Translations under genes and position numbers: made by a program
Part shown: positions 39,254 to 53,500 of the stretch, in pieces
Numbering within the stretch: the first letter of the stretch is position 1
How the letters are laid out: every line of letters begins with the position of its first letter
From: Podospora anserina
Lineage: Eukaryota
Assembly (NCBI GenBank): GCA_017654855.1
Contig: CM030333.1
Span: 3,720,001 to 3,784,000 of the forward strand
Reading direction: 5' to 3'
Length of the DNA stretch: 64,000 bases
The notes under the pieces: model-generated
Told to the model about the DNA's origin: nothing
Seen by the model: only the letters and a program-made list of their open reading frames with translations
Databases searched by the model: none

Positions 39254-40587
39254 ATGACCGTCCCTCAGAAGCGCCCCGCGGAGGACCTCACCGTCACCGC
39301 CCTCGACAACAGGATAGCCGAGGAGCCCGCTCTCAACGGCCACAGCAACGGCGCCAACGGCCATGCTGTTTCCTCTCTCCCTACCCTCGACGCCTCCAAG
39401 ATCACCATCACCCGCGCCGACCCTAATGCCCGCACCGTTCCCACCGAGGCCGAGGCCAACTCTGGCAACGAGACCATCTGCACCGACCACATGATCACCG
39501 TCTCCTGGACCGCCGCCAAGGGCTGGGCCAACCCCGAGCTCAAGCCCTACGGCCCTCTCTCCCTCATGCCCACCGCCTCCGTCCTCCACTACGCCACTGA
39601 GTGCTTCGAGGGCCTCAAGGCCTTCCGCGGCTACGACGGCAAGCTCCGCCTCTTCCGCCCCGACTGCAACGCCGAGCGCATGCTCATGTCCACCCTCCGT
39701 ATCTCCCTGCCAGGTTTCGACCCCAAGGAGCTTGAGAAGCTCATCGAGATTCTCATGTCCGTCGACGGGCCAAAGTGGCTTCCCAAGGAGAGAGCCGGCT
39801 CCTTCTTGTATATCCGCCCCGCCGTGATTGGCACACAGCCCCAGCTCGGTGTCCAGGCTCCCAAGGAAGCGCTTCTTTTCATCACCGCCAGCTTCATGCC
39901 GCGCATGGATCTGCCTGAGGGTGGTATGAAGCTGCACACCAACCCCGAGGACATGATCCGCGCGTGGGTTGGCGGCTTCGGTTATGCCAAGGTTGGTGCC
40001 AACTACGGACCCAGTCTGTTGGCCACTGCCGAGGCGAGGAGTAGAGGTTTCGGCCAGATCTTGTGGCTGTACGGACCTGAGGGATACTGCACCGAGGCTG
40101 GCGCGAGCAACTTTTTCATGCTCTGGAGGACAAAGGAGGGCCAGCTCCAGCTTGTCACGGCGCCGCTGGATGATAAGCTGATTTTGGACGGTGTGACGAG
40201 ACGCAGTGTGGTTCAGCTTGCGCGGGAGAGGCTGGCGGGTGAGCTGGAGGTTGTGGAGAGGAAGTACACTATCGATGAGGTGCTTGAGGCGGATAAGGAA
40301 GGAAGGATTGTGGAGGCTTTTGCGGCTGGTACTGCGGTATGTTCTTTTCCTTATCCTCAAAAACAAGTTCTAGAAGTTACGGGTTACTGACGTGATTTTT
40401 TTTTTGACAACAGTTCTTCATCTGCCCCGTCTCCGAGATCCACCACCGCGGCATCGACGTTAAGATCCCCATGGGCAAGGAGGGCAAAATTGGCCACTAC
40501 ACTGCCAAGCTCAAGGGCTTCGTCGGGGACATCATGTACGGCAACGAGCAGCATCCTTGGGGTGTTGTCATTCAGGAGCAGGAGTAG
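39254..40587 (+). CDS. Branched-chain amino acid aminotransferase (PLP fold IV), no obvious mitochondrial presequence
   Basis: TDHM, LHYATECFEGLKA, RLFRPD, LYIRP, YAKVGANYGP (PLP Lys), TEAGASN, ILDGVTRRS and AGTA; intron 40337-40413. Confidence 0.95.
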
Positions 40588-41404
40588 AGCGGTTTGTGTT
40601 TGAGGAGCATTTTGCATCTGCATCAGCATTTTGGAATTTCAAAAAGAGAGAGCAGGGATACCATAGAGGTGTCGATATGGGATGTTGAAAGTGAACAGAG
40701 CAAAAGCGGGCGTTTGGGACAAGGGAAAAAGAGCAGGGTTCTTGTTTGGCATTAGCATCGTAGCTGTTGGACTGGTTGGGACAGGAGGTTAAACTTCCTG
40801 TCTATTTTGAAATGGATAAAAACATTGAAAATTCTCAGTGCCTTTTTTAAATGCAGCTGTGGTGTGGATGTTGTTGCTGAGTGAGGGAGGTGGTATTTGT
40901 TGTCGCCTTGGCTTGGACACTCAGATCCTACGTAAATGCACACCTAGCAGTGGCAAAGCAGTGGTCATGATAAATAAAAAGACGATTGTTGATTCAACTC
41001 ATCAAATTCACCACTATCAATGCTGGCTTTCATTTCTCAACTCCAGGTCATCCAGACCTAACAACCAAACAAAGAGGGTATCATATCTCAGGGGGTATCC
41101 GGTTTCTATCCCCATTCGTATCCCGTCATCCCGATCAACCCAGGTCAAGTCATTCATTCGTTCTGATGCCACTGAAAACAACCGCGATGTCCCTCAACTC
41201 AAAAACTTCAAAAAAAATCAACGCCTTTTTTTTCTGCCAAAATATGCCATGTCATTACCATCGTGAGATTAACCCGTATACCTCTCCCAACATCCGCTTC
41301 AACACCCCATGCCATTCCAAAAAGGAAGGAAAAAAAAAAACGAACGCAATGCCTACTTGCAAAAATCAAACGCAATGCAATTATCCCCTTCCCACTCAAG
41401 AATA

Positions 41405-44400
41405 TCAATCCTTCAATATCGTCAAATCCAACCCAGGAATATTCCTCTCCCAAGGCGGTATTGACCTTGCCGAACTCCCCGTTCTCGACCTTACAGGAGG
41501 TGGTTTCTCCAGCCCTCCCCCTCCTCCAGCAGACATCACCGTCCCCTCACTAGAACTCATCCCCTCCGTCTCCTCCCCCTGTTCCTTCTCTTTATCTCTG
41601 TCTCCCTCATCATCACTCCCCCTTCGCCCACTCTCCTCACAATACTCCACCTCCGCCCCCCCCCTCCTCAACCCCTTGAACCTCCCCAGTATCCCCGCCC
41701 CCTTCTCCCCTCCCTCATCACCCCCCTTGGCTTTATCCCCACCATCCTCCCACCGAACAACAAAATCCACCATCTCCCTCCCATCCCTCACAGCCCCGAG
41801 CAGTACCGGATACGCCAAACACCCCCCCAACAAACACAGCACCGGTATCCCCACAGCCAACTCCACACTCAACCCGCCCCTCTCCCTGATAGCATAACTC
41901 ACAAACGGCCAAAACATCGGGCCCGACGCCCCCATGGTCAACCACGCAGCCGCCCTCTTCGTCCTCTCCCCCTGCCCCCTCAGCCCAAGACTAAAAATCA
42001 AAGGCCAGATGGGACCCTCGCAAAAGAAAAACAACATGAGCGGTATAGCCACCAAGTTAGGGTTGCCAGTGTGCGGAAACACCAAGATGACCAACGCAAA
42101 GACCGCAGAGAGAAACACGCACAATGTCAAAACCGTGCGGGGTTTGGGGACGAGTCGGATGTGAGGTTTCGAAACGTTGAGGTAGACCACCCCCGCCGCA
42201 AGAAAGCGGGAAAGGGCAAAGGCTGTGTGGGCGATGAGGAGGTAGTTGAGGATGGAGAACTTCAGCCCCTGGGGGCGGTAGTCCGCCGCTCTTTTGGCTG
42301 TTGCGGGGAGGGAGTAAGACGCAAAGGAGCTGAAGAGCTGGTGGAAGTAGACCGACATGTTTTCTTGGGTGGCGACGTAGCACCATTGGGCGAGGACGGC
42401 GAAGAAGATGGTCCAGTTTCGGAGCTTGAAACCGCCCAAGGAGCGCTTTTTTGGTTCGAGGGGGAGCTTGGAGGCTAGCTCGGCGAGTTCGCTGTCTGAT
42501 ACCTCGGGGAGGGGCATGTAATAGAAATAAAGTGCGAGGAGGACCGAGAGTAAAGTGACGCCGAGGTATGTCCATTGGACGTCGATGAGGGTTTGGGACA
42601 TCTCGCCGTCTTCTAGTTCGCCGTGGCTTTCTTTTTCGAGGTTGCGGAAGAAGACCTTGTTGGCGAGAAGGCCGGAGAGGACGCTGCCGACTGCCTGGAC
42701 GCCCTGCGCGAGGAGGAGCCTCAGATCTCCATACGCCGGGGGACCGCACAAGATCAAAAAGGGGTTGGCGGCTGTCTCGAGGACTGCTAACCCGAACCCG
42801 ACGGCAAAGGAGCTGACCATGAATCCCCCATAAGCAGTCAGGACTGCCCCGGGCCAAAACATGATAGTGCCCGTGCCATAAATGAGTAATCCCACAATAA
42901 ACGTCGTCTTGAACCCCCCTATCGCCTCAACACCCGGGCGTTCCTTTCTTCCAGAGCGGCGGTGCTCGTCATGCCGTAGCAACCACTCCCCAACAAGAAG
43001 CGGCCCAGCAAAGTAACCAGCCCCAAAGTACATCGACGTCAAGCCCAAAGTCTGAGCAAACGACATCCCCGCCACATCGGCGATGACATTGTTAAGCGTG
43101 TTGAGCAGGCCGTACGAGAACCCCCAAATGAAGAAGAGAATGCAGACGATGGTGCAATACTTGAACGATTCGGTGGCGTTGGTCCGGATCATGCTCTTTG
43201 GCTTCTTCATATTAACAAAGCCAAAGTAGACGGCTGTCGCGGTAGCAGCCGAGTCTCGGTGGGGAGGCGGGACGTAGTTCATGCTATGGGCCATCGACAC
43301 TCTCCTAGACGAAGGTCCACCAGAACCCGCGGCACCGGCCAAGAAATCTCTGATGGAAATCTCTTCCGACGACCGCTCATCTGGCGGGGTGATGACAAAA
43401 GCTGGGGGATCAGCTTGCGTAAATGGCGAAGGGTCCGCGATGTCGACTGGAGCTCCCTCGGCGTTTGCCAGCCCATCAGCACCAGCCCTATTGTTATCGT
43501 TGTTGTTCTTGAAAGGCGACGGCTCATCCCCCGTGAGCGTGGTGCTCCGCCTCGTAGCGTTGGGATCATACAGCATAGCCGGCAGAATCCTAACAATCAG
43601 CGGCTTGAGCGTAGGAATACACGCACACGTAATCCCCACGTTGACCTCGACGGCCGACCACATCAACGAGAGCGACGCATTCCATGAAAACGAGGGACTC
43701 TGTCCGTAGAGCGCCTCCCTGTTCGAGGAAGGATTCATAGACGTGATGTCAATCGCTTTCTGTAAGTAATAGATACGCACCACATCCACAATCGTCACAA
43801 AGATGCCGAGAGAGAACGTCAGGATCAAAATGATCTTTTGCCTCGGCGGCAGTCTCATGCTGGTCAACACCGGGATTGGCAGCGCCAGGATCGCCAGGTC
43901 GGTCGTGACGTTGATAGGAGCCGAGCAGATGAATTCGGTGAGCAGGGGAATGCACCTGATCATTCGGGTGTTGATGTCCCACGCTGCCGCGATGGGGTGG
44001 CACTGAAAGATGTTCATAAATGTCAGAATCACCCCCGCCAGGTTCACCACGCCCAACACGCCCCAGGAAGCCATCCTAAGAATCTTTTGCGTGTTCTTCG
44101 CCAGCCGCAGATAGAAAATTAGGACCGAGGATTTCGTCGCCATGAGAGCCGGGTTCTGCCATAACGTCAGCCACCATCTTGTTCGCCCTTGGGCCAGTGT
44201 TGCTCACATAGAGAATGCTGAAAACATATTCACACATCTTCAGCCCAGGCATCTTCCAAGCGTCTACATGGTCCCCATGCCTTCCTAAACCCCTCATGGT
44301 TCCAAAAATGATACTCAGACTCAAAAAGACGGTGATCAGCCACGCCAGCACGATGATGTAGTCATCAGCCCCGAACCTCCTGACTATCCCGATCCGCGAC

Positions 44401-44567
44401 ACCATCCTCGCCGCAACAAACACCGACGCCAGCGTCAGCGTCGCTGCCGTCACCGCCAAGACCGCAGGTCCCCGGTCGGCGTGCTCATCTTCCCCTTCTG
44501 CCTGTGGTACGCTGATATTGTTGTGGTCGGCCTGTCTGTAATGGTGGTAATGATAGAGTGTTGACAT
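41405..44567 (-). CDS. Fusion protein (about 1036 aa): fungal rhodopsin/PTH11-like multi-TM domain plus L-fucose-permease-type (FHS) MFS domain
   Basis: N-half: ADDYIIVLAW, GLGRH, K-S-L-FY-RL, FQCHPIAAAWD, TDLAILALPIP, WSAVEVNVGITCACIPTLKPL. C-half: LFFIWGFSYGLL, GFKTTFIVGL, LETAANPF, RLLLAQGVQ. Single intron 44156-44207; no stop codon between the domains. Confidence 0.9.
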
Positions 44568-47500
44568 GTTGGGCGACGGGTGGCGACCCTAAGTCAGGGG
44601 TCCAAGGGGTGCCAACTGAATAATGTCAAAAAAGCCACGCCGTGTCGTTGAGTACAAGGCTGGCTGGCGTCGCTGGCGTCTCTCTGCGCGCGTGCAGATC
44701 CACGCACGTCGATAAATAAATAAAAAGCCGTTTACTGTATCGTCGATATCGTCGTTGCTGTTAATGATATTGTCGACAGTAATATCCTCTCCATCTCTCT
44801 CAACAACCTATACAAAAGTTGGAGCTTGGGAAAGGTCTGTCACCCCAAAAAAGAACAACCCCAGCGGCCGTAACAATAGCAGCACTAGACTACCGTTTCC
44901 GTCTCGGCAGCGTCGACAGCAGCACTATGTTCTCGTTGAAGGATGATGGTTGTGGTCGTCGTTGGTGTAGTAGCTGTACAACCCTAACCGCCATCTCGAA
45001 TCTCTGGCAGCGGTTCCTGTCAAGTCTGTGCGTTCTTTGACACAAAGCTGACACCATGCCACACAATCACCGGTAGAACGGAAAGAAACTCGTGTGCGTC
45101 CTTCTCAATCAAGCGGAATTCGGATGGCAATCAAGTTCCTGTGCCTGTCCTGTGTCTGAGTGTGTGGTGTTGCGACTCGGCAAACGTGTGAACCCAGGGT
45201 AACCGTTGTTTCGTGCAAAGTGCCGAGGCGAAAGAAATCGTTGCCAAAACAGTATAAAATATGCTTGATGTGCTTGATGTGTGAAACAGGCGTACTTTCT
45301 CTCCCACTTCTCGCCGTTCTGTCCGTCTGATCTAATGATATTTGGCTCTCGGTATTCGGATTTGGATTTCCCTTCCTTTTTCTCACCCCCTCCAGGAACT
45401 AATTCGGGTAGTGGTAAGGTATCTTTCAAAACAGGTGTCCCCCTGGCAGGGTGAAACCAGTTCACCGTGTAGTGTTTTGCAGGGCCATGAGTCGTGATAG
45501 CAAATATATCGCGGGGTGTGGCGGGATAGACAAGACCCCTGCTGCAAGTGTATGAGGGTAGGGTTCAATATTAAGGTTTTTACAACCACCAGTACCGATG
45601 TGCCTCCTTGGCCAATGACATCAAAGCCTGGGACAAATTGTCAGAATCGAGCTTCGGTGAAAAGAGGAACGAATCGATATCGTCAAAAAAGAAAAAGGCC
45701 TCGACGCCACAAAATTCTGTGATTTGTGACCTGTGCGTGTGTATGTGTGCCAAAAGACTCGAGCAGAAGCAGTAAGAAAAAGCCAAGGTGTGTGGAGTGG
45801 CGATGGTATGGGGAGGTCGGGAAGTAATAACTTACAGCAAAAAAGATGGGACGAAAGCGAGAAAAAAACCTGCTTATATCTTACAACAATTGCTATGATT
45901 ATCGATATCCCTTTTTCAAAGATTTTCCCCTTGTGCATGGATGGGTCTCCCTCCTCATAAAGTGTAATAAGTATCCAGCAGCGAGTGTGTGCCCGGATTT
46001 GCAACTTTTCCATTACCACTCCACTACTCACCGCTTGCTCTCTCTCTCTCTCGGCTCCTCCCCCTCACTCTCCATCTCTACAACTCATACGAGAAATGCC
46101 GTTATGCGAAGCACTGCCCACTTTGCCCCAGCTTTTTTCTCATCTTCAATGGCCCCCAGCCTTTTTGCTAAACCTTAAATCCTTCGCTTAACCCACCACT
46201 CTTGTGTGAATGATGTGATAAACTCTTTGCCTGCCCTTTTCCCGAGCGAGACAAAATTCCACCCCTCCTTCGGAGGAACAACTCCCCTTCCCCCCCAAGC
46301 CACCAAACTTGATAAAACCCGCATGATGCAAACTCTCATCCTATTAACTACCCCTTCAATTCCTCACAAGGAGGTCAGTGGCTTTCTCACCACCCCCCAT
46401 CCGCCTACCTTTTCCCTAATCATCCTCCCGCCGCTCCTTGTTGGTCATCTGCCTTCGTTGTCGTCAGGTTGTCAAAAGTCTGGGCAATGACATAGCCCAC
46501 CCCAAACCGCCCCAACCCCAGCAAGCACGTGGACCAATCACCGCCCCCTTCGGCTGGCAAAGTCCCCGACCGCCCGGCTCCAAAGCAGTGTCTTGGCAGA
46601 GCCCTGTGACACATTGACCATTCAACCGCACATCGCGCGCCGCCGCGTTGCCGAGACATTCTCAACCTCACAGAACAACAACCGCATCGTTAATTGCTGT
46701 ATGTAGCGGCGGCGATCCCCCCCCTCTCCTCCTCAAATGGAGGGGCAACCAAAGCAGCAGCCCAGGTACGCCCATGATAAGGGTTTTTTCCAGTAAAACA
46801 AGAACTACTTGAAAAATCCCGCCATGCCACAAGCTTTGGCGAGCGGAATACAAAACCTAGATCTCGCTTCCCTCCTCACGTTAATTGGCTCTGCTATCGG
46901 TGCCTGAAAGCTCCTCGCCCCAGCGAGTCGGAATCTGCCTGCCGGCCTAATAACAAGAAGTGCATGTTTGCCTTATGTATGAAGAAAGCCTGGATATTTT
47001 ACCTCGTTTGAGAGATGTGCAATTCTTGGCTGAGGAATAACGATAAGCAAAACAAACCAAAAAAAAAACTAAAAAAAAAAAAAAACTCCTCACAGCCCAT
47101 CATCATCATCGTCGGTGAGAAACCAAAAGAAACAAAGTGAAGGTTTCAAAAGTAGCTCCTCTCTGGTCCCGCCAGCGATGACGGCTCCTGCGGAACCCAT
47201 CGTTGTGTCATCCAGGGACCAGGCAAGTTGCTCCGCTGATGGCTGCTGTCGTGCTTGTGAAATGCTATCGATGTTGTTTCACTTTCTTTGCTGACCAGAC
47301 TCCCGTGCCTGGCCACTGAAAAAATAGATTCTGTACGGACAGGATGACAGACATATGACTTCCTGTCCGCCCCCTTTTCCAGAAAAGTCCACCCTTCCAA
47401 ACACCACAACAAAGAATTCCAACCGTGGCTATGACCTCACGGATAAACATCAAGTGGACGCACCATCACCAGCCTTGCCGTCTCTGTTTGCTCAATTCCA

Positions 47501-47628
47501 GAAAACCACCTATTCACCGCCCAGACTTTCTTTGTACAGATATGGGTATCTTTCCCGATAATTACAGCAACGCCCGGCATGACCAGACAAGCAAGCATCT
47601 CATCCAAATGGCGTCAACTCCGATAGTT

Positions 47629-50593
<2,965 letters not shown>

Positions 50594-53500
50594 TCCTGTC
50601 AGTCTGTGGAGCTGGAGATCGACTGGTTTCCTATATGCCGACTCCAGGTGCCCCTTCTCGGCATGTTCTCTCCTTCACCGATGTATATATATGGGGGCTG
50701 AGCCGACAAGAAATATCATGTAAGTGGTGGCGAGAGTATTCGCTAGGTGGGGGTTGTCGTTAGCACAGTGAGTTTTCCTGGTTGATGGCGAGCCTCAGGC
50801 GTCGTCTTGGGAAGTTTGACAGGACGCGAAGAAGGGAAGCTTGACAAGTAGGTGGTCGCCTTATGGCTGGAATGGTTGGCGAGATAGTAAGTCGATTTTC
50901 TGGGGTGCATCAAAGTGAGCCGCCCCCGCAGACAGCGTAGCACAGCACAATAAACTGGGGATCGGGGAGTTTGGTAGAGAGGGAGGGTCAAGTATGGGAC
51001 GAGTAATTGGTCAGGGGCCGGCTTGTCAGACAGGATGATGGGGCGACTACCCCGGATGGAAGGTTTGATTCTGGGGAGTCCCCCGGGTGGAAGACAGGGG
51101 AGGCTACAGTGTAAGTACCTAGGCAGGTAGGCTTAGAGCCGATGACGGGAGGTGTGTGGCTATGAGATGGATTGTTGGATCGCCAGTGAGTGAACGGATA
51201 ACTCACATTCACCCTCCCCATCTAGAGCTTGATCCTCGGCCCTTTTTGCTGAAGGAAAACACAATGTCCATATGATGATTGGGCGGCTGTCTCCGAGCAT
51301 CTGAAACTAAGAGCTAGAGCCGGCAGTGGCCGTTTAAAGACGAGATGTCATAAAGATAAATGTGACCGAGGATGATGTCGAGGCCTGAGAGGCAAGGAAA
51401 CCATGATGTTCAATTCCCACAAGAGAAGGTAGCAGCCCAACCCAGCGGGGAGGGGTCAGTGGAAAGATGTTGGCCAACACTGGAACTTGAGAAGGCACGA
51501 TGTGTGTGGTGCGGGGAGGGGACGATGCCGGTGAGTTGAAGGATGAGTGGGGTTGGAGAAGTGGGAAAGAGCTCCGGGGAGTTGGTGGAGACGATACACC
51601 TTACGGAAAGCTGTGTTTTTCGGGAATTCCAGTTTGTCCCTAGGCGCTGCCAAAAGCAGAATGGGTTCCCAGTTACAGCTTGTCCTTGCCCCCTTCATCC
51701 CATATTCCCTCCCGTCCTGTCCAGCAGTTTGGTGGTTCAATGGAGTTTAACAGATTGAAAAGGGATGAAATTTCATCCTTGATCCCTGTATGTAACGGCG
51801 GCCCCACAGTACCACCTCCGCAACCGACGGCTTCAGGGCCCGCCATCCACAAGCCGTTGCTCTCCACCCCAGGGTCACTGTGACCACTTCAGGACGTCGA
51901 CGACCTTCTTACTCTTGATTTGTATTCTTTAAACGCGCACCTTTTACCACTTCAAACATCGCCAGAAAATCAATGTTCTTCTCTCAACTTATTTACCGCC
52001 TCCAAAACAGCGGTGCCCAAGAGCTGTCAAGGGTCCTTCCTTGTCTTTCTTTGGTACCGCGAAGTCAAGATCCAACTGTGATTCAGGAACGATGTCCATT
52101 GACGGGAACCCGATATATGAGGGGAGTATTCAATGCTTCCTCGCCTCTATCCCGTCTCGACTTAAGCTCTCTTCCACGGCAATTGCTTCTGGGGGGCAGG
52201 TCACAAGCACAATGTGACGCAGCGTGACCGCTCGCTGGGCCTCTGGAGCCGCCTTCTGTTTATATACTGACGCTTTATTTCATATTCTGGTCGAGCTCTT
52301 TGGGCTGAAGCTGTGCGTCACAGTGAGGGTGCAGCGACAACTTAGGGGTCGCAATATCTTGATGTTTGCCGCGCCAATTACAGCTCACTGTTCTACAGTA
52401 ACTGTTGATCTTGCCCGGCTGGGCTTTCTATACCAACCATATCAGCCAGGTATATCCTAGCTGTCGTCAATATCGAGACTGTGTCCCGGGTCGCTGCACC
52501 ATGGGAGCGAGACACCCGAGGTCGAATACTTTCAAGTCCTCTTTCCGCATTACATACAAGGACGGGGACCATGATACGGCCGAGCCTGCTGTTCTCAGGA
52601 ACTGAAGAGCGTTGAAGGTGCCGTTCGCTTAAGCAGCAAAACCCGGAACCCCCTGCAACCCGCGACCTTCACCAAATCTAGCCCCTTGCAAGATCGGGCT
52701 CTGGTCCCTAACGGTCGGCGATCCTTGGCAGTCTACGGACGATCGTCTCCCGAAATTCAACCCAGCTTCCTCGCCTCTTCCCTCACCTCGACCATGAAAT
52801 CACCTCTTCACCGCATCACCACTTGCTTTCAGAACACCGCGAGCTTCATACTCTGGCGTAGCACTCTTTATGGAGCTCTCAAGCATCTTTGCTCCAGTGA
52901 CCGCTTCAGGTTGTCGTCAGACAGTTACACTTGGTCACATTACACCTCCCCATTGCTGTTGCATGGCTGGGGATAGCATCAAGAATCATCATCATATTGT
53001 CAACTACCGGAAGTTCGGAACCGAGACTATTAAGCAAAGACCGGCATACCAACCATGACATGCCTCGATTCGGGGCCGTTTAAGCTCTGTATCAGTGCAG
53101 ATGTCCCCAGCAATTACGGTAAGGTAACCCGTCGAGCATGATGAAGATCAAGCCTCTTCTTGTTCTTGTTCTTGTTGTCGATCTTTTGCTTATACCCAGG
53201 AACCAAGCTCTTGTGCCTTGCTGTTGCTTGCCAGCCTAGACCAAGCAGCTCCGGTAGTTCACTGACCGCAGCCTGCCTTCCATATACCGGGTGTATCCTG
53301 CAGGCGGAGATGCTGGTGCCGAGCGCTAAGGTCAAGTAAGTGGGCACACTTCCTGCTTGATCTTCCAGGTTTGTGCCGTACATATTCTCGTTCCTCGTCC
53401 CGCGACACCTATCGGTCCGAAAATCTCTCCGTCGTCTGCTTGTGCTCAGGTCAGGAGCCCTACAAGCCCGGATTGTCGGGAGGCTCTCCGGCTTCGACTT

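Follow-up and report, generated by a model that had tools for sequence, protein, structure and literature searches.

A Pth11-like seven-helix domain and a FucP-like sugar carrier in one gene of Podospora anserina

Yeast Snf3 and Rgt2 are glucose sensors in which a transporter fold is used for sensing and long cytosolic extensions are present. Nutrient transceptors have been reviewed (PMC3824880), and LYCHOS/GPR155, the human lysosomal cholesterol sensor, is described as a hybrid that combines a PIN-like transporter with a G-protein-coupled receptor (GPCR) (PMC11525196). For fungi, the Pth11-like GPCR class XIV is listed under two Pfam entries, PF05730 (CFEM) and PF20684 (fungal rhodopsin) (PMC13308352, Table 1), with CFEM reported in only a subset of the class (PMC5526305). 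Pth11-like proteins are connected with plant, insect and nematode infection and with cellulose sensing, and their ligands and mechanism are stated to be unknown (PMC13308352). We describe here a gene of Podospora anserina, on the minus strand of contig CM030333.1 at 41405..44567 of the 64,000-nucleotide stretch analysed (the window, to which all positions refer), whose product joins a Pth11-like domain of seven transmembrane helices (7TM) to a major facilitator superfamily (MFS) carrier that resembles Escherichia coli FucP.

In FucP, Asp46 is described as the putative H+-binding residue (PMC4882079; PMC3824880, citing Dang et al. 2010). The D46N exchange is reported to inactivate H+ translocation while a fucose-specific charge displacement remains, and XylE D27N to keep 90% of counterflow with <1% of uptake (PMC8784342, with Table 3). 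The distinction between symport and uniport is said to turn on Asp27 of XylE versus Asn29 of GLUT1 (PMC5491310). Fungal members of the FHS family, to which FucP belongs, include the L-rhamnose transporters RhtA of Aspergillus niger (PMC5161314) and SUT-28 of Neurospora crassa (PMC7084071), which show that FHS proteins of fungi can carry deoxy-hexoses. The Podospora protein has Asn at the position of Asp46. We propose, at about even confidence, that it is a sugar facilitator or exchanger without FucP-type proton coupling that carries the 7TM domain as a cis-acting regulatory or signalling module.

Gene model, transcripts and predicted product

Two minus-strand open reading frames, 44076..44567(-) and 41405..44143(-), are united in frame by one splice, and the spliced product has 1036 aa and zero internal stops. 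It differs from its database homologue, a hypothetical protein of Podospora pseudocomata, at 8 of 1036 sites. The intron cuts exactly through the match to the PF20684 (Fung_rhodopsin) profile, of which exon 1 accounts for positions 1-66 with E 6.8e-8 and exon 2 for positions 69-236 with E 7.5e-46; because the profile is contiguous across the intron, the splice is independently supported. The domain order is Pth11-like 7TM, predicted disordered linker, 12-helix FucP-like MFS and Gly/charged tail, and the locus encodes one 19-helix (7 + 12) membrane protein of a conserved Pezizomycotina family. Its features are as follows.

44208..44567, minus strand: exon 1, 120 codons with the ATG at 44567, encoding the N-terminus and 7TM helices 1-2 (PF20684 profile positions 1-66)
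44156..44207, minus strand: intron, 52 nt, GT..AG (GTGAGC...CAG), spliced out in contigs of 4/4 runs
41405..44155, minus strand: exon 2, 916 codons plus stop (41405-41407), translated without internal stop, with Pfam and NCBIfam matches
43571..44471 (intron included), minus strand: Pth11-like 7TM domain (PF20684), aa 33-315, seven helices, from Pfam, AlphaFold2 and fold matches
43235..43564, minus strand: linker, aa 318-427, ~110 aa, from composition, conservation and predicted local distance difference test (pLDDT)
41768..43177, minus strand: FHS/FucP-like MFS domain, aa 447-916, 12 helices, from PF07690, TIGR00885 and FucP 3o7q
43100..43102, minus strand: Asn472 codon AAC, column of FucP Asp46
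42776..42778, minus strand: Glu580 codon, column of FucP Glu135, within LETAANPF
41408..41767, minus strand: C-terminal tail, aa 917-1036, ~120 aa, Gly-rich, charged and predicted disordered

RNA-derived contigs were taken from four of 24 listed runs (X1, X2, X3 and X10), belonging to four studies; the stretch is present in 20 public runs from 9 studies. The RNA label of these runs is a guess, made for 14 of them (X1-X14), and no record states it for any run. In every one of the four runs a contig skipped 44156..44207 exactly (CT..AC on the plus strand), which shows that these contigs stem from spliced RNA and confirms the intron. The linker-coding part, 43235-43564, was bridged by a single contig, which hence joined both domains, in all four runs. 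The bridging contigs, taken from the run assemblies and strandless, were:

X1: 41806-45400+
X2: 42015-45400+
X3: 41884-44599
X10: 41863-43562

These data support one gene with one RNA, which is expressed, and agree with the original prediction that a single gene and RNA join both domains.

The N-terminal domain predicted alone with AlphaFold2 (26-row alignment) gave seven helices with a pLDDT of 83.5 and a predicted template modelling score (pTM) of 0.81. In a VIA fold search of 48,161 chains the best match was yeast Ste2 (Z 17.4, root mean square deviation 4.2, 255 residues aligned), followed by AdipoR2 (Z 15.1), a microbial rhodopsin and TAS2R14 (14.6), and then many GPCRs. A Foldseek search of the 7TM domain against the PDB gave no match at E<=1e-3, the best having E 2.7e-3 and the weak list consisting nearly entirely of GPCRs. 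Because helical bundles without kinship can reach a VIA Z of ~13-14, the domain is predicted to be a GPCR/rhodopsin-like 7-helix bundle and no further claim is made for its fold. Together with the PF20684 match, this predicted GPCR-like bundle bears out the Pth11-like N-terminal domain that had been proposed, and at the level of its Pfam match the 7TM half falls under the definition of GPCR class XIV, Pth11-like. Neither exon product matched CFEM (PF05730), an N-terminal domain of Pth11 itself, at E<=0.01. In 68 diverse fused proteins, 19 residues of the ~290-aa 7TM domain are invariant, among them R54, D69, Y120-N121, K128, D206, R247, W286 and E290.

The linker had been described as ~120 aa long and Ser/Pro-rich; it is a little shorter, and with 15% A, 13% P and 11% S (aa 318-427) it is Ala/Pro/Ser-rich rather than strictly Ser/Pro-rich. 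In 20-residue blocks over 120 orthologues its identity was 0.09-0.36 and its occupancy 0.58-0.76. The long charged tail was found as predicted (aa 916-1036, 21% acidic and 16% basic) and is also 21% G; its block identity over the same orthologues was 0.06-0.30, and both membrane domains are well conserved. Just before the first MFS helix the orthologues share a short conserved island, YFGFVNMKKPKSM.

AlphaFold2 prediction of the whole protein (68-row alignment) gave 7 + 12 transmembrane helices with a pLDDT of 78 and a pTM of 0.78. Residues 1-26, 321-428 (a short helix excepted) and 932-1036 had pLDDT <50, 234 of 1036 in total (23%). Because the pTM reached this value despite 23% disorder, with the MFS domain making up only ~45% of the chain, the two domains appear confidently placed relative to each other in the model and may be docked. 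When the two domains were predicted as separate chains the complex score was 0.02, with their own alignment unused, and this speaks neither for nor against docking.

Extent and age of the fused family

Among the candidates scored, 823 homologues of the window protein were found at E<=1e-3, and all of the best 120 carry both domains as judged by local hidden Markov models. These 120 come from Sordariales, Coniochaetales, Diaporthales, Xylariales and Hypocreales (Sordariomycetes), plus assemblies. A fused protein from Penicillium used as query (P0162) gave 1389 homologues; its best 120, from Penicillium, Aspergillus, Talaromyces and relatives, comprised 108 fused proteins, 11 with a partial 7TM domain and 1 without it. 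The basal stand-alone query P0190 (Mycena) retrieved 460-490-aa 'L-fucose permeases' from Basidiomycota and Ascomycota, and none of its best 120 was fused. An exhaustive search with the MFS domain only gave 1561 representatives at E<=1e-3 and 137 at E<=1e-30. Most of the long representatives were fused; counted over those whose MFS domain is whole, 39 were fused, 7 had a partial 7TM domain and 13 were apparently stand-alone. Judged from these searches the fusion is widespread in filamentous ascomycetes, and the protein, first taken for a singular chimera, belongs instead to a large old family.

Databases already annotate family members automatically with both domains. No paper describing a PF20684-MFS fusion family was found in a full-text search of an open-access library, and the Pth11/GPCR catalogues PMC5526305, PMC4683645 and bioRxiv 10.1101/2024.11.25.625238, searched for MFS or other transporter fusion partners, mention none. 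Judged by these catalogue papers, the family seems to have escaped notice.

The 78 fungal MFS domains were placed in a maximum-likelihood tree with FucP as the root (quick search with Shimodaira-Hasegawa-like approximate likelihood ratio test (SH-aLRT) support and no bootstrap). All 58 fused rows fell in one clade (SH-aLRT 99), and three stand-alone lineages with Asp branched first. Ten of the 13 apparently stand-alone rows lay inside the fused clade, mostly beside fused sisters on short branches, and these may more likely be truncated gene models. As a separate observation, 13 of 150 listed representatives begin at position 95 of the local 7TM profile, which is equivalent to the Met just inside exon 2; these 13 public gene models probably lack exon 1 together with helices 1 and 2.

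For 68 fused proteins one tree was computed from the 7TM half and another from the MFS half; the two shared 36 of 65 splits, deep ones included, and label shuffles of the two trees gave a mean of 0.21 and a maximum of 2 shared splits. A shared species history also adds to this congruence. Because so many splits are shared, the trees point to an old, single fusion, at least of the age of the Sordariomycetes/Eurotiomycetes split, whose halves evolved as a unit. In our proposal the fusion would have arisen once, before that split, and the change from Asp to Asn would have come later, in a lineage that includes the Podospora gene.

It could be argued that the fused protein is an artefact, either of neighbouring Pth11-like and MFS genes read as one or of misassembly. 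The linker is unconserved, and the 13 whole-MFS representatives that look stand-alone, 10 of them inside the fused clade, could be cited for this explanation. The linker is free of stops, though, single contigs bridge it in 4/4 runs with the intron spliced out, the 120/120 fused best homologues come from many independently assembled genomes, and the two halves yield congruent trees. The position of the 'alone' rows beside fused sisters on short branches also makes truncated models the likelier explanation for them. We regard an artefact as largely refuted and most improbable.

The carrier half and the position of FucP Asp46

The MFS domain matched PF07690 MFS_1 in Pfam (E 4.8e-10). Its best NCBIfam model was TIGR00885 fucP (E 3.7e-31), at 108.7 bits against an equivalog cut-off of 280.4; PRK10133 was matched with 80.9 bits against a cut-off of 427, and gluP and NagP were further NCBIfam matches. 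The sole solved relatives found by sequence were E. coli FucP 3o7q (E 3.5e-22) and 3o7p (E ~1e-22). By these matches the MFS half belongs to the FHS family (TC 2.A.1.7) in a broad sense and is not a FucP equivalog.

In a MAFFT alignment of the 78 fungal MFS domains with E. coli FucP, Asp46 shares an ungapped column with Asn472, and the by-eye alignment that had put the Asn at 43100-43102 at this position was right. Intermediate and distant fungal homologues read WGFAYGLLD(T/V)LN..FQ, which matches W38...D46ILLPQFQ of FucP without a gap. A HMMER pairwise alignment of the first transmembrane helix (TM1), which needs a 4-residue gap (NNLND against NTLNN) and places Asp46 at Asn476, was rejected in favour of the ungapped multiple alignment. 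Asp480, one helical turn past Asn476, was considered as a shifted carboxylate and rejected, the position varying among D, Q, N, A, E, S and T. The Glu135 motif LETAANPF is identical in FucP and the window protein, intact as had been noted, with Glu580 in the place of Glu135, the TM4 carboxylate. No acidic residue specific to the Asn clade, and so of a compensating kind, was found in the fungal MFS alignment.

The residue at the Asp46 position, read by motif, was distributed as follows in the three sets.

Orthologue set of the window protein (best 120): N 116, D 4
Stand-alone family (best 120): D 116, N 1, with 3 left unread
Eurotiales fused set (best 120): D 113, one each of five further residues, with 2 left unread

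Of the 39 diverse fused representatives, 17 had N in this column, 10 had G and 6 had D, with S and T occurring in 2 each and A and F in 1 each, so that the carboxylate is absent in 33 of them; the Glu135 column is E in 75 of the 78 fungal rows. On the tree the window protein belongs to a clade in which Asn predominates (43 rows, SH-aLRT 99), whereas Gly prevails in a further clade of 10 rows. These distributions indicate that Asn is a clade trait and not a consequence of fusion: because Eurotiales fused proteins keep Asp in 113/120, fusion does not require loss of the carboxylate. The counts for the diverse fused representatives speak partly for the original prediction.

Other parts of the carrier are strongly kept. 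The columns of R599, R770 and K853 are basic in every row of the groups with N, D and G, and the W38 and R154 columns of FucP are kept in the fungal alignment. Because the Glu135 column is nearly always E and the three basic columns are always basic, the alignment indicates that the carrier half is under constraint. Glu718 (TM7) and Glu833 (TM10), which are Thr and Met in FucP, are membrane-embedded and conserved in the N, D and G groups; the acidic share per group was 82-100% of rows in the Glu718 column and 67-100% in the Glu833 column. We consider both, from their conservation, candidates for alternative protonation or substrate sites.

Repeated loss of Asp46 in the fused family is in keeping with an altered mode of coupling, and also with a position that has become less important, since Glu718 and Glu833 are conserved and absent from FucP. 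In our proposal the MFS half would still bind and carry sugar, probably a deoxy-hexose or hexose like its relatives, and in this clade, without the TM1 carboxylate, it would act as a facilitator or exchanger and not as a FucP-type proton symporter. The Asn472 change would be comparable to Asn of GLUT1 versus Asp of XylE. Of the loss of proton coupling claimed originally, the absence of the Asp46 carboxylate stands and the loss itself is not proven, because Glu718 and Glu833 are conserved membrane carboxylates.

The same residues bear on a different explanation, in which the protein is an ordinary proton-coupled symporter working through Glu580, Glu718 and Glu833, and the 7TM domain is a structural, sorting or stability module without signalling. 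Conservation of Glu718 and Glu833 across the N, D and G groups, together with their absence from FucP, would suit this explanation, as would the lability of the Asp46 column with all else retained; RhtA of A. niger, a relative among the fungal FHS proteins, is moreover a working L-rhamnose transporter (PMC5161314). It has to contend with the description of Asp46 as the putative H+ site in FucP (PMC4882079), with the retention of Asp in 116/120 stand-alone fungal FHS carriers, and with the 19 invariant residues of the ~290-aa 7TM domain in 68 fused proteins, which suggest more than ballast. On balance we find it unlikely.

Proposed role, flanking DNA and relation to known systems

A 7TM domain of GPCR topology that starts outside ends in the cytosol, and MFS domains start in the cytosol. 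In the proposed facilitator or exchanger, the 7TM domain with its N-terminus outside would end in the cytosol, where the MFS domain begins, so that both would lie side by side in one membrane. The 7TM module would then act in cis, either regulating the carrier (its activity or trafficking) or relaying carrier occupancy to signalling.

A stricter form of 'transceptor' would be a sugar sensor that does not transport, in which the MFS domain binds the ligand and the 7TM domain and tails signal, for instance through G proteins/cAMP, as Snf3/Rgt2 do by way of their transporter fold. The Asp46 carboxylate is absent in the window protein and in 33/39 diverse fused representatives, and FucP D46N is reported to bind fucose and not to translocate H+ (PMC8784342). 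The 7TM domain resembles a receptor, the predicted disordered cytosolic segments are long, and LYCHOS/GPR155 offers a precedent of a GPCR-transporter hybrid that acts as a sensor (PMC11525196). Against a pure sensor, the 113/120 Eurotiales fused proteins that keep Asp indicate that the fused architecture needs no uncoupled carrier; conservation is lowest in the linker and tail, the parts in which one would look for signalling motifs; and transport-core residues are as conserved as in stand-alone carriers. We consider a pure sensor rather unlikely. A sensor or 'transceptor' role with signalling, as the original prediction had it, is possible, the hints at it being the architecture and the absence of the Asp46 carboxylate; the prediction's observation is confirmed in every structural detail and its interpretation is partly supported.

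Several points weigh against the facilitator or exchanger that we prefer. Asn in place of Asp may not decide coupling, and Glu718 or Glu833 could carry protons. Parsimony places at least 11 changes between carboxylate and non-carboxylate on the tree, and Asp is back in 4/120 close orthologues; so labile a column could mean that the family depends little on this position. The GPCR label of Pth11-like proteins comes largely from their topology, with ligands given as unknown (PMC13308352), the GPCR fold matches obtained here are generic for 7-helix bundles, and the Foldseek list is empty at E<=1e-3. Transport, binding or signalling data for any family member were not found in a search of an open-access library. 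The same search gave only RhtA and SUT-28 as functionally validated fungal FHS proteins, neither of which was placed in the tree. The protein may also be cleaved within the linker. At the level of RNA, the contigs are strandless, come from runs whose RNA label is guessed and do not give the transcript ends. In none of the four runs does a contig cover the tail-coding stretch at ~41630-41805 or a joint bridge it, and the contigs therefore do not establish continuity into the tail. This stretch is a purine-rich GGA/GGG low-complexity run that encodes the Gly/Glu-rich start of the tail. We take the gap as an assembly or filter hole, because of this purine-rich sequence, because the contig ends vary among runs and because no joint was seen. 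An intron there was considered and dropped, the contig ends differing between runs and no joint crossing it.

A broader idea is that Pth11-type 7TM domains generally partner MFS nutrient carriers in the membrane, and that in this family the two are welded, with sugar occupancy read by the 7TM domain or the carrier gated by it; repeated loss of Asp would then mark a shift from active uptake to sensing. We think this quite unlikely. If it were true, the fusion would serve as a 'Rosetta stone' for all Pth11-like proteins, which form the largest group of GPCR-like proteins in fungi and are still without ligands.

The joining of a Pth11-like domain to a sugar carrier, conserved and expressed, provides a concrete, testable hypothesis on what Pth11-like domains do, in a tractable system with an orthologue in both Podospora and Neurospora. 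The family further serves as a natural experiment on how MFS carriers are coupled to protons, with Asp, Asn, Gly and Ser at the Asp46 position of otherwise conserved carriers.

The flanking DNA comprises an intergenic region and two neighbours. The original prediction had noted a ~3-kb gene-free region upstream and read it as a sign of complex regulation; a region of 3.06 kb without a recognisable coding gene is present, and the gap is no evidence of complex regulation.

44568..47628, no strand: upstream region, 3.06 kb, from the ATG at 44567 to the stop of the next gene (47629), without recognisable coding gene

ORFs tested within 44568..47628 gave no Pfam match, and a scan of 40400-47700 found no Rfam families and no tRNAs. 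The X1 (3771 nt) and X2 (4147 nt) contigs run on from the coding region past 45400, and their lengths place their ends at ~45630 and ~46210, respectively, which is 1.0-1.6 kb upstream of the ATG. The contigs being strandless, this upstream RNA is either a very long 5' leader or a separate overlapping transcript. In X1, X2 and X3 the contigs have one extra, non-coding G behind 45196 compared with the window, which is either a strain difference or a homopolymer error. The next upstream gene, on the same strand at 47629-50674 (-), looks like a fungal transcription factor: its ORF 47629..49449 (606 aa) matches Fungal_trans PF04082 (E 3.8e-11), and farther upstream ORF 50330..50674, which has no Pfam match, includes the stretch CKSCRKRK, reminiscent of a Zn2Cys6 finger. 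The downstream neighbour at 39254-40390 (+) is a class IV aminotransferase (PF01063, E 7.4e-21) that resembles a branched-chain aminotransferase.

Compared with known systems, the window protein shares with E. coli FucP (PDB 3O7Q) the 12-helix MFS fold, the identical LETAANPF and the W38 and R154 columns; it differs in having Asn for Asp46, an extra 7TM domain, a linker and tail, and Glu718 and Glu833. Stand-alone fungal FHS carriers (~470-490 aa) belong to the same MFS subfamily and are the nearest lineages outside the fused clade, but 0/120 of them have the 7TM domain and 116/120 keep Asp. With Pth11-like class XIV proteins the window protein has in common PF20684 (E 7.5e-46), seven helices and the predicted GPCR-like fold, whereas it is without CFEM and has 19 helices rather than 7.

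The nearest analogue in design is LYCHOS/GPR155, in which one chain holds a transporter fold and a GPCR-like 7TM domain; the likeness is not one of homology. The transporter is PIN-like there and MFS here, the 7TM domain is of another class, and LYCHOS is an animal lysosomal protein, whereas the Pfam domains of the window protein are MFS_1 and PF20684 only. In LYCHOS the transporter comes first, the reverse of the order in the window protein. Snf3/Rgt2 and the transceptors resemble it in that a transporter fold is used or proposed for sensing and in their long cytosolic extensions; they belong to other MFS or APC families and have no fused 7TM domain. We rate the general kind, transporter-receptor hybrids and transceptors, as known, and the variant described here, a Pth11-like 7TM domain with a FucP-like MFS carrier, as new.

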